Positions 13,832 through 25,039 of a DNA stretch of 64,000 bases are shown here, piece by piece (position 1 is the first letter of the stretch; every line of letters begins with the position of its first letter). The translations under genes were made by a program, and so were the position numbers. This DNA is from Escherichia coli. GTDB lineage: Bacteria; Pseudomonadota; Gammaproteobacteria; Enterobacterales; Enterobacteriaceae. The notes under the pieces are model-generated. The model did no database searches and was not told the DNA's origin. It worked only from the letters and a program-made list of their open reading frames with translations. Location: the NCBI RefSeq assembly GCF_003334385.1, contig NZ_QOWN01000006.1; one strand, 5' to 3'.

Positions 13832-14455
13832 ATGTCAACGATTATTATGGATTTATGTAGTTACACCCGACTAGGTTTAACCGGGTATCTGTTGAGTAGA
13901 GGGGTTAAAAAAAGAGAAATCAACGACATTGAAACCGTTGATGACCTTGCCATAGCTTGTGATTCACAGCGCCCTTCAGTGGTGTTTATTAATGAGGACT
14001 GTTTCATCCATGATGCTTCTAACAGTCAGCACATCAAGCACATCATTAATCAACATCCCAATACGTTATTTATCGTTTTTATGGCAATTGCCAATGTTCA
14101 TTTTGATGAATATCTATTGGTCAGAAAAAATTTATTGATCAGTTCTAAATCGATTAAACCGGAATCTCTCGACGATATCCTTGGCGATATTCTGAAAAAA
14201 GAGACAACGATAACCTCGTTTTTAAATATGCCGACGTTATCATTGAGCCGAACCGAATCGAGTATGTTGCGAATGTGGATGGCAGGTCAGGGAACCATTC
14301 AAATCTCTGACCAAATGAATATCAAAGCCAAGACCGTTTCATCGCATAAAGGTAATATTAAACGTAAGATCAAAACGCATAATAAACAGGTTATCTACCA
14401 TGTCGTCCGACTGACGGATAATGTGACTAATGGTATTTTTGTCAACATGCGCTAA
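13832..14455 (+). CDS. rcsA: Capsule synthesis co-regulator RcsA (LuxR-type)
   Basis: 207 aa starting [25 protein letters not shown]-terminal LuxR-type HTH. Confidence 0.95.
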
Positions 14456-14498: not shown

Positions 14499-14777
<279 letters not shown>

Positions 14778-14849
14778 CTATACTTAAGAGATGCCAGGCG
14801 GACTTAACGACTGGCGGCAACAACAGAGTAACGGTTGCGAGGAAAGATG

Positions 14850-15077
14850 ATGAAAACCGCAAAAGAGTACAGCGATACCGCAAAACGTGAGGTCAGCGTC
14901 GATGTCGATGCCCTGCTGGCGGCGATCAATGAAATTAGCGAAAGCGAAGTTCATCGCAGCCAGAACGATTCTGAACACGTTAGCGTCGATGGACGTGAAT
15001 ATCATACATGGCGTGAATTGGCGGATGCCTTCGAACTGGATATTCATGACTTCAGCGTCTCTGAAGTGAATCGTTGA
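14850..15077 (+). CDS. yodD: Small stress-induced protein YodD
   Basis: 75 aa from MKTAKEYSDTAKREV; tandem ATG codons, second chosen; start uncertain by one codon. Confidence 0.8.
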   Translation: MKTAKEYSDTAKREVSVDVDALLAAINEISESEVHRSQNDSEHVSVDGREYHTWRELADAFELDIHDFSVSEVNR

Positions 15078-15090
15078 ATGCACAATAAAA

Positions 15091-15177
15091 AAATCCCGAC
15101 CCTGAGGGGGTCGGGATGAAACTTGCTTAAGCAAGAAGCACTTAAAAAATTCGTTACACCAGGAAATCTGATGTGTT
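15091..15177 (-). ncRNA. dsrA: DsrA small regulatory RNA (Hfq-dependent regulator of rpoS and hns)
   Basis: Reverse complement reads AACACATCAGATTTCCTGGTGTAACGAATTTTTTAAGTGCTTCTTGCTTAAGCAAGTTTCATCCCGACCCCCTCAGGGTCGGGATTT, matching the recalled DsrA sequence including the terminal GC hairpin and U-tract. Confidence 0.9.
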
Positions 15178-15356
15178 CATCACCTTATCCGCAATTTTTT
15201 TCGCTGACAAGAAAATATTCGCGATATGAATGATTAACGCTACTTATGAATAGAAATGTGACGTGCGTCACCCCTTGGTGGCTCTGGCGTCAACGGGATC
15301 GCTCCCGAAAAAATCATCTTTGATTATTTGTGCTGTTTTGAGAATCATCCTGGTAA

Positions 15357-17881
<2,525 letters not shown>

Positions 17882-17966: not shown

Positions 17967-18103
17967 GGCATGATAAGACGCGACAGACATCGATAGTTTT
18001 ATAACGTAGGCATGATAAGACGCGATAGCGTCGCATCAGGCAATTCAGTGCAGACACTGGCACACCCGACCGGATGCGACGTGAGCGCCACATCCGGTCG
18101 GGT
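17967..18103. repeat. Extragenic repeat cluster: two direct copies of a 17-mer plus a 13-bp-stem palindrome (REP/BIME-like)
   Basis: ggcatgataagacgcga at 17967-17983 and 18009-18025; perfect inverted repeat acccgaccggatg / catccggtcgggt at 18064-18103. Confidence 0.45.
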
Positions 18104-23578: not shown

Positions 23579-23669
23579 CTTTTTATTATTCTGTGTCATG
23601 ATGCTTACGTTATTAGCCTTTTATCGTCTTGTTTATATTTTTTGGGCCGGCATGATGCCGGCTTTTTTT
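23579..23669 (+). ncRNA. rseX: Candidate RseX-like small RNA in the yedR-porin intergenic region
   Basis: Intrinsic terminator (gccggca-tga-tgccggc then seven T) at 23646-23669 with no + strand CDS to terminate; I recall RseX mapping between yedR and yedS; 5' end is a guess. Confidence 0.4.
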
Positions 23670-23980
23670 ATACCTTCATTAATGTGCGCGTGATCACACC
23701 AAGTGTTTAGCGCAACAATCATTGATACTCCCTATCTTTCCGCTTAACTCATAACATATTGATATACATTTATAATTTTCATGAATATTTATATTTGGAA
23801 TTCATGATTCTGAATTATATTAAATAGATTAGAAACATTTTGAAATCTTTTAAATACATTTGTTGCATGTAATCCTTAAAATAAAATGAAGTTCATAGAA
23901 TAGTATCCAAATGTGCTTTTTTTTGGATAACGGCACTTATTGATATATTCATGAAGATTATAATCACAAGGGAATACATA

Positions 23981-25039
23981 ATGAAAAGAAAAGTTCTGGC
24001 AATGCTGGTCCCGGCGTTATTAGTTGCTGGCGCAGCAAATGCGGCTGAAATTTATAATAAAAATGGCAATAAACTGGATTTGTACGGCAAGATGGTTGGT
24101 GAGCGCATTCTGACCGACCGTGAAAATGGTGAAAAAGGCGATAATTCTCAAGATACCTCTTATGCCCGTGTAGGCGTGAAAGGTGAAACTCAGATCAACC
24201 CTGAATTGACTGGTTACGGTCAGTTTGAACTAGACCTGGAAGCATCAAACAGACACAACCCTGACCAAACTCGTTTGGCTTATGCTGGTTTGAGTTACAA
24301 AGATTTTGGTTCATTCGACTATGGTCGTAATGTCGGTGTCGCGTATGATGCAGAAGCATTTACTGATATGTTTGTTGAGTGGGGCGGTGATTCATGGGCT
24401 GGTACTGACCTGTTCATGACCAACCGTACCAACGGTGTTGCAACCTATCGTAACACAGATTTCTTTGGCATGGTTGAAGGTCTAAATTTTGCTCTGCAAT
24501 ATCAGGGTAAAAATGAAGGTACAGGCAACTACAAAGCAAATGGCGATGGCCATGGTTTATCTGTAACTTACACTATTGACGGTTTCTCATTTGCTGGTGC
24601 TTACGCAAACTCTGATCGTACTGATTTCCAGTCTAGTGATAGTAAAGGTGAAAAAGCAGAAGTTTGGGCACTGTCAACAAAATATGATGCCAACAACGTC
24701 TATGCTGCTGTGATGTACGGTGAATCTCACAACATGAATTCCGACGACGGTGATGTTGTGAACAAAACACAAAACTTCGAAGTTGTTCTGCAATATCAGT
24801 TCGACTTCGGTCTGCGTCCATCCATCGGTTACTCCTATTCTAAAGCACTGGACGTAGCAGGTTACAAAGATTCTGATCGTCTGAACTACATTGAAATCGG
24901 TACCTGGTATTACTTCAATAAGAACATGAACGTATATACCGCTTATCAGATCAACCTGCTTGATAAGAGTGATTATGTTCTCGCTCATGGACTGAACACC
25001 GACGACCAACTCGCATTTGGTATCGTCTACCAGTTCTAA
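23981..25039 (+). CDS. yedS: General-diffusion porin of the OmpC/OmpF family (yedS-type), apparently intact
   Basis: Signal peptide MKRKVLAMLVPALLVAGAANA, beta-barrel repeats, C-terminal YQF; ORF track start 23951 trimmed to ATG 23981 with RBS. Confidence 0.8.
   Translation: MKRKVLAMLVPALLVAGAANAAEIYNKNGNKLDLYGKMVGERILTDRENGEKGDNSQDTSYARVGVKGETQINPELTGYGQFELDLEASNRHNPDQTRLAYAGLSYKDFGSFDYGRNVGVAYDAEAFTDMFVEWGGDSWAGTDLFMTNRTNGVATYRNTDFFGMVEGLNFALQYQGKNEGTGNYKANGDGHGLSVTYTIDGFSFAGAYANSDRTDFQSSDSKGEKAEVWALSTKYDANNVYAAVMYGESHNMNSDDGDVVNKTQNFEVVLQYQFDFGLRPSIGYSYSKALDVAGYKDSDRLNYIEIGTWYYFNKNMNVYTAYQINLLDKSDYVLAHGLNTDDQLAFGIVYQF

Follow-up and report, generated by a model that had tools for sequence, protein, structure and literature searches.

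A dsrA small RNA gene identical to the K-12 copy in the yodD–yedP spacer of an Escherichia coli chromosome

Introduction

The small RNA DsrA has been under study since 1995. Its activation of rpoS, the gene for the stress sigma factor RpoS, by an 'anti-antisense' mechanism is published (PMC5766208, PMC6537650), and DsrA–rpoS chimeras have been recovered by rGRIL-seq (PMC8545128). Induction at low temperature, dependence on Hfq, and roles in acid resistance and in antagonism of H-NS have also been described (PMC4152358, PMC8544407, PMC8545128), and the dsrA promoter is more active at low temperature (PMC4152358, PMC8544407). Structural work on the RNA has provided an NMR structure for nucleotides (nt) 4–22 and has shown that stem-loop 2 (SL2) is dynamic, with a plasticity between Fold A and Fold B in which 'Fold B' (nt 42–59) forms once a target engages the 5′ side (PMC5766208).

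Two other Hfq-dependent RNAs, RprA and ArcZ, activate rpoS as DsrA does: they pair with the upstream arm of its leader hairpin and free the ribosome-binding site (PMC4152358, PMC3937726). Their sequences are unrelated to that of DsrA, however, and they lie at other loci and answer to other signals (the Rcs phosphorelay and ArcAB/oxygen); unlike DsrA, neither represses hns.

Here we describe the dsrA locus in a stretch of 64,000 nucleotides from E. coli (RefSeq assembly GCF_003334385.1, contig NZ_QOWN01000006.1), referred to below as the window, whose positions are used throughout. The closest described copy, K-12 dsrA (b1954), has the same 91 nucleotides, core promoter, flanking genes and spacing, and predicted target complementarities; it differs from the window copy only outside the RNA, at −46 (15223) and at several positions in the dsrA–yedP spacer. 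The gene is an already known, textbook one, and its RNA, identical to that of the laboratory strain, holds nothing new. The copy, which does not differ from the reference, has no importance as a discovery. It is of practical use in annotation, since a small RNA scan fills the otherwise 'gene-less' 297-bp yodD–yedP spacer (15078–15374).

Results and discussion

Identification of the dsrA gene

The whole 64-kb window was scanned with cmscan against Rfam 15 at gathering thresholds. Four matches were returned, the best to DsrA and the others to rseX and two tRNAs; RprA and ArcZ were not among them. The DsrA family (RF00014, gathering threshold 60 bits) matched the minus strand from 15177 to 15091 with a score of 102.5 bits (E = 1.5e-18), covering model positions 1–85 of 85 without truncation. 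Read in the same direction, the letters of this interval are AACACAUCAGAUUUCCUGGUGUAACGAAUUUUUUAAGUGCUUCUUGCUUAAGCAAGUUUCAUCCCGACCCCCUCAGGGUCGGGAUUU. Direct string comparison of 15087–15177 (minus strand) with dsrA of K-12 MG1655 (b1954, NC_000913.3 2025223–2025313, 91 nt) gave identity at 91 of 91 positions. The 3′ end is placed slightly differently by the two sources: the Rfam match stops at 15091, while the K-12 annotation adds four U's, to 15087, within the U-run. The gene was therefore delimited as follows.

15087–15177, minus strand: dsrA small RNA gene, nt 1 at 15177 (RF00014 match and identity to K-12 b1954)

By every criterion open to testing, the locus is a member of RF00014, and 15087–15177 is almost certainly the E. 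coli dsrA gene, which encodes the Hfq-dependent small RNA DsrA of about 87–91 nt. A sequence-only reading of the window had called DsrA base for base on the minus strand and had proposed alignment to the Rfam DsrA model or to K-12 dsrA as a check. Both comparisons were run and both agree, with the Rfam match at exactly the interval that had been proposed. Substitutions in the rpoS- or hns-pairing regions, which that reading had named as evidence against itself, are absent, as the RNA carries no substitution at any position. Its description of the locus as known biology also stands, the mechanism being documented in the literature (PMC5766208, PMC6537650, PMC4152358).

Gene order and annotation

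The genes surrounding dsrA were located from the open reading frame (ORF) list, the K-12 annotation and the annotation of a near-identical strain, cM8a.

13832–14455, plus strand: rcsA, syntenic block (ORF list, K-12 and cM8a annotation)
14499–14687, minus strand: dsrB, syntenic block (ORF list, K-12 and cM8a annotation)
14850–15077, plus strand: yodD, convergent neighbour of dsrA (offset from K-12 b1953; annotated in cM8a)
15375–16190, plus strand: yedP, divergent neighbour on the promoter side of dsrA (ORF list, K-12 b1955, cM8a)
16187–17881, minus strand: dgcQ, syntenic block

Gene order and spacing in the block fliR–rcsA–dsrB–yodD–dsrA–yedP–dgcQ are the same as in K-12. The core synteny rcsA–dsrB–yodD–dsrA–yedP, asserted from the sequence earlier, is confirmed by the position of these five genes at one constant offset (+10863) from the K-12 annotation. 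The earlier placement of dsrA downstream of yodD is right as to position; the two genes are, however, convergent and not co-directional, lying tail-to-tail on opposite strands with 9 nt between the yodD stop codon and the dsrA 3′ end. E. coli strains cM8a and LF3-1 match a 5-kb block around dsrA at 100% identity. The gene also marks the window as part of the core E. coli chromosome, beside the asnT-inserted yersiniabactin island described below.

In 15 of 15 sampled RefSeq records, no annotated feature lay under the dsrA match, and the annotation of cM8a has a gap between yodD and yedP. Among the records inspected, only the curated K-12 record carries dsrA as an annotated ncRNA. The remark that a view restricted to ORFs would miss dsrA therefore applies to the RefSeq/PGAP records inspected (the 15 sampled and cM8a), all of which are empty at this site.

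Distribution of dsrA

Of 5426 complete E. coli genomes searched with megablast, 4974 contain the identical 87-nt sequence and 5339 a copy of at least 95% identity; 87 gave no match to dsrA. The gene is almost always single per E. coli chromosome. One natural disruption was seen, in E. coli B-1109 (L083, NZ_CP117971.1, 2088–2954), where an IS1A element lies inside dsrA. It is flanked by a 9-bp target duplication, AAAAATTCG, corresponding to DsrA nt 25–33, and parts stem-loop 1 (SL1) and the linker from SL2, stem-loop 3 (SL3) and the terminator.

Beyond E. coli, an exact-pattern scan with DsrA nt 8–30, covering one genome per GTDB species, yielded 76 loci in about 20 enterobacterial genera. These include Escherichia, Salmonella, Citrobacter, Enterobacter, Leclercia, Lelliottia, Buttiauxella and Atlantibacter, as well as Trabulsiella, Pseudocitrobacter, Superficieibacter, Siccibacter, Franconibacter, Phytobacter and others. 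When the window's proteins were used as tblastn queries, the same fliR–rcsA–dsrB–yodD–dsrA–yedP–dgcQ block was found in most of the 76 loci, so that DsrA of other Enterobacteriaceae lies, as here, between yodD and yedP/dgcQ. Exceptions occur on both sides of the gene. Several loci of the Citrobacter freundii complex (L005, L009, L013, L016, L020, L031) have no yedP/dgcQ beyond dsrA despite ample flank, and in Pseudescherichia and relatives (L011, L026, L067) yodD was not detectable by tblastn.

For comparison of the RNAs, 74 full-length homologues were aligned with the window copy (75 sequences), and base pairs were counted for the minimum-energy structure of the window copy. DsrA of other Enterobacteriaceae (Salmonella, Citrobacter, Enterobacter, Buttiauxella, Atlantibacter and others) shares with it nt 5–28, corresponding to SL1 and the first part of the linker, together with the CUUGC/GCAAG core of SL2, the basal part of SL3 and the U-tail. 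An AAC start and a linker of six U's are typical of Escherichia, whereas the linker has five U's or fewer in other Enterobacteriaceae, and the upper stem and loop of SL3 differ there through compensatory changes.

Fold, stem-loops and terminator

The 87-nt RNA folds at −31.9 kcal/mol, compared with −16.7 ± 3.3 kcal/mol for 200 dinucleotide-preserving shuffles (z = −4.67; 0 of 200 as good). The minimum-energy fold consists of three hairpins. Together with the minus-strand hairpin called in a terminator scan, it substantiates the stem-loops and terminator that had been recognized from the sequence at the outset.

15156–15174, minus strand: SL1 (DsrA nt 4–22), 7-bp stem with an AUUUC loop, in the minimum-energy fold and the Rfam consensus structure
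15122–15135, minus strand: core hairpin of SL2 (nt 43–56, CUUGC-UUAA-GCAAG), conserved; 'Fold B' in the literature
15087–15117, minus strand: SL3 and U-tail, a Rho-independent terminator (terminator scan), with the stem at 15093–15117 and the U-run at 15087–15092

The SL3 hairpin (15117–15093) has 10 bp, of which 7 are G-C, followed by a T-run, and the scan called an intrinsic terminator here for the minus strand alone. Across genera, compensatory double changes occur in 5 of its 10 pairs, and 94.4% of the alignment cells are paired. The overall covariation score was 0.100, compared with 0.053 ± 0.003 for shuffled alignments (0 of 500 reached 0.100) and at most 0.040 when pairing partners were slid. 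SL1 is invariant in the 75 aligned sequences; its invariance and covariation are uninformative, because the retrieval pattern fixed nt 8–30. Match, fold and terminator are far beyond chance.

In the SL2 region, the consensus structure calculated with RNAalifold for the 75 sequences keeps only a 5-bp helix, C43–G56 (CUUGC NNNN GCAAG), which is paired in 74–75 of 75. This core agrees with the 'Fold B' defined by NMR (PMC5766208). The longer SL2 of the minimum-energy fold, when the window structure was projected onto the 75 sequences, had only 77.5% of its cells paired, with many unpaired; its AAGUGC...GCUUAA extension pairs well in Escherichia only. The long form was accordingly rejected as the family structure, and the 5-bp core was preferred.

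Promoter and 5′ end

The region upstream of dsrA was examined by phylogenetic footprinting, using 73 distinct upstream sequences from about 20 genera anchored on +1. Two motifs, CTTGTCA and GATAaGGT/GATAaTGT, are conserved at fixed spacing and delimit a core promoter.

15182–15210, minus strand: core promoter, TTGTCA (15205–15210), a 17-nt A/T-rich spacer and TAAGGT (15182–15187), from the footprint

We take TTGTCA and TAAGGT to be the probable functional hexamers, in keeping with Repoila and Gottesman (2003). Between −45 and +1 the sequence does not differ from K-12, and the closest difference is the one at 15223 (−46), where the variant is common to another Escherichia lineage (L052). A generic sigma-70 consensus scan of 14700–15500 called no promoter, a result that is expected because the −10 hexamer matches the consensus at three of six positions; the footprint shows a conserved TTGTCA-17-TAAGGT, and the miss was rejected as evidence against a promoter. 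From these elements, dsrA would be transcribed from its own non-consensus sigma-70 promoter, with transcription ending at SL3 and the U-run. The hexamers (−33 to −28 and −10 to −5) stand 2 nt nearer than is canonical to the +1 of the annotation, and the AAC with which DsrA begins is not kept in genera other than Escherichia; the 5′ end given by the sequence is for these reasons approximate.

Further upstream, about 80 nt from the dsrA start, a small GC hairpin (GTGACGCACGTCAC, then ATTTCTATTC; 15258–15271, minus strand) was flagged as terminator-like. Two of the differences between K-12 and the window (15264 and 15265) fall inside it. The hairpin is probably a chance match, given that three terminator-like sites were found where 1.0 ± 1.2 were expected.

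Predicted target pairing

The genes rpoS, hns and hfq lie outside the window, and target tests were made with K-12 rpoS and hns. RNAduplex runs with full-length DsrA gave implausibly long, loop-ridden duplexes with both targets, and a weak result for rpoS (14 of 500 shuffles as good). These runs were discarded and replaced by runs limited to known single-stranded or pairing segments, from which, together with complementarity to hns, two regions were defined.

15138–15168, minus strand: rpoS-pairing region (DsrA nt 10–40: 3′ half of SL1, linker and start of SL2; RNAduplex)
15135–15147, minus strand: hns-pairing core (DsrA nt 31–43, UUUUAAGUGCUUC; complementarity to K-12 hns)

With DsrA nt 1–40 and K-12 rpoS from −200 to +30, the predicted duplex joins nt 10–40 to −127 to −96 at −31.8 kcal/mol, and 1 of 1000 shuffles was as good; the segment given in the literature is −119 to −95 (PMC5766208). 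Folded alone, the K-12 rpoS leader is predicted to pair −124 to −96 with −16 to +12, which covers the Shine–Dalgarno sequence and the AUG, and DsrA would therefore compete for the very arm by which the ribosome-binding site is closed. For hns, DsrA nt 31–43 form a perfect run of 13 Watson–Crick base pairs with K-12 hns +7 to +19.

These predictions fit the following scheme. In the presence of Hfq, the 3′ half of SL1 and the A/U-rich linker would unfold and anneal to the rpoS leader at about −120 to −96, SL1 being unwound in the process. That segment of the leader would form the upstream arm of a hairpin sequestering the Shine–Dalgarno sequence and the AUG, and pairing by DsrA would free the ribosome-binding site and raise RpoS synthesis. 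The linker and the 5′ side of SL2 would pair with codons 3–7 of hns, leading to a block of translation or to decay of the message, and may pair likewise with mreB and rbsD mRNA.

The usual Hfq contact elements, an A/U-rich linker (AAUUUUUUAA) and a 3′ U-tail, are present, and binding to Hfq is known for the identical K-12 RNA (PMC5766208, PMC6537650). On the strength of the literature, dsrA would be expressed in this strain as a discrete RNA of about 85–90 nt, with Hfq dependence and thermoregulation. Of 5426 E. coli genomes, 5417 have an rpoS leader of at least 95% identity, and because of this species-wide conservation it is safe to infer that the strain's own rpoS carries the DsrA target. 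The integrity of its hns and Hfq is presumed on the same grounds of conservation across the species.

Alternative explanations for the locus

The proximity of yodD raises the question of which gene the 3′ hairpin belongs to. The hairpin and U/A-tract at 15087–15117 might primarily be a terminator or 3′-end stabiliser of yodD, with the DsrA-like sequence as its incidental 3′ flank. Between the yodD stop codon (15077) and the dsrA 3′ end there are only 9 nt, the terminator scan found no other plus-strand terminator-like site between yodD and yedP, and the tight convergent arrangement is kept in most of the 76 loci. The covariance model, however, matches all 85 of its positions on the minus strand, well beyond the hairpin; the hairpin has its T-run on the minus side alone, the plus strand having GAAACTTG after it and no terminator called there; and the upstream 60 nt, which include a conserved promoter, make sense only for a minus-strand transcript. 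We consider this explanation very improbable. The hairpin may additionally serve yodD by stabilizing its 3′ end, which would not displace the identification as DsrA. A protein-coding origin has a probability close to nil. The mechanical ORF list does contain a 116-aa minus-strand ORF (14784–15134) with a TTG start inside dsrA, but this ORF is wholly antisense to the conserved, annotated yodD coding sequence, its start lies within SL2, and its expression would need read-through of the dsrA terminator. Neither the K-12 record nor PGAP annotates it, chance is expected to produce such ORFs on the strand opposite a real gene, and it was rejected as a gene on account of its antisense position and its absence from all annotations.

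A different possibility is that the sequence has been kept while the gene is unexpressed or non-functional in this strain. A promoter-proximal difference from K-12 does exist at −46, and natural loss of dsrA occurs, as seen with the IS1 insertion in B-1109 and the 87 of 5426 genomes that had no megablast match. Against such silencing or decay, the 91-nt RNA has no difference from K-12 while nine are found at flanking intergenic sites within 200 bp upstream, a disparity consistent with purifying selection on the RNA. In addition, K-12 and the window have the same core promoter between −45 and +1, the −46 variant is shared with the L052 lineage of Escherichia, and dsrA contains no insertion or truncation. 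A silent copy is thus extremely improbable, and an intact dsrA gene remains our reading of the locus.

Possible coupling of yodD and dsrA

Between 15078 and 15120, yodD (plus strand) and dsrA (minus strand) share a hairpin that has a T-run on the dsrA side only, and the terminator scan found no plus-strand terminator-like site before yedP. In a comparison of four promoters, that of yodD has been reported as the 'most purely RpoS dependent' (bioRxiv 10.1101/2023.11.09.566509). One could imagine that the tail-to-tail arrangement is functional, with read-through past the one-sided hairpin producing an RNA antisense to DsrA, or causing polymerase collision, and so imposing an RpoS-driven negative feedback on the activator of RpoS itself. 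Three things suggest this idea, namely the geometry, the conservation of the arrangement and the reported RpoS dependence of yodD; we regard it as unlikely.

Other features of the window

The rseX small RNA (RF01401) was matched over its full length at 23580–23669 (plus strand) with 96.8 bits, compared with a threshold of 50. Relative to the consensus, this copy has deletions of 3 nt and 1 nt immediately ahead of its terminator hairpin. A porin gene lies downstream of rseX (about 23979–25037 according to the cM8a annotation). The two tRNA matches are a tRNA-Ser at 32494–32580 (minus strand) and a tRNA-Asn at 33572–33644 (plus strand).

The spacer between dgcQ and yodC (17985–18090) is 67 bp longer than in K-12. 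An additional REP-like palindromic unit (…GCATGATAAGACGCGATAGCGTCGCATCAGGCA…) is present, and a REP hairpin is longer by 13 bp (CCGGATGCGACGTGAGCGCCACATCCGG); the difference is ordinary REP copy-number variation.

A yersiniabactin high-pathogenicity island follows tRNA-Asn and reaches the window end (33572–64000). Its genes (int, ybtS, ybtX, ybtQ, ybtP, ybtA, irp2, irp1, ybtU, ybtT, ybtE and fyuA) run to that end, and hence the strain carries the island. By blastn, collinearity of the window with cM8a fails beyond about 33.9 kb, with two indels. The island integrase gene (about 33798–34724, plus strand) lacks 347 bp relative to cM8a (cM8a locus 33930–34276), a length that is not a multiple of three, and its remnant is a 308-aa ORF with a GTG start, compared with 420 aa in cM8a. 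Because the 347-bp loss leaves only this ORF, the integrase is probably inactive, and the island probably fixed. At about 42244–42260, the window is without the 1.3-kb IS421 element (IS4-like) that cM8a has between ybtA and irp2, and owing to the absence of this insertion the ybtA–irp2 spacer is intact here.
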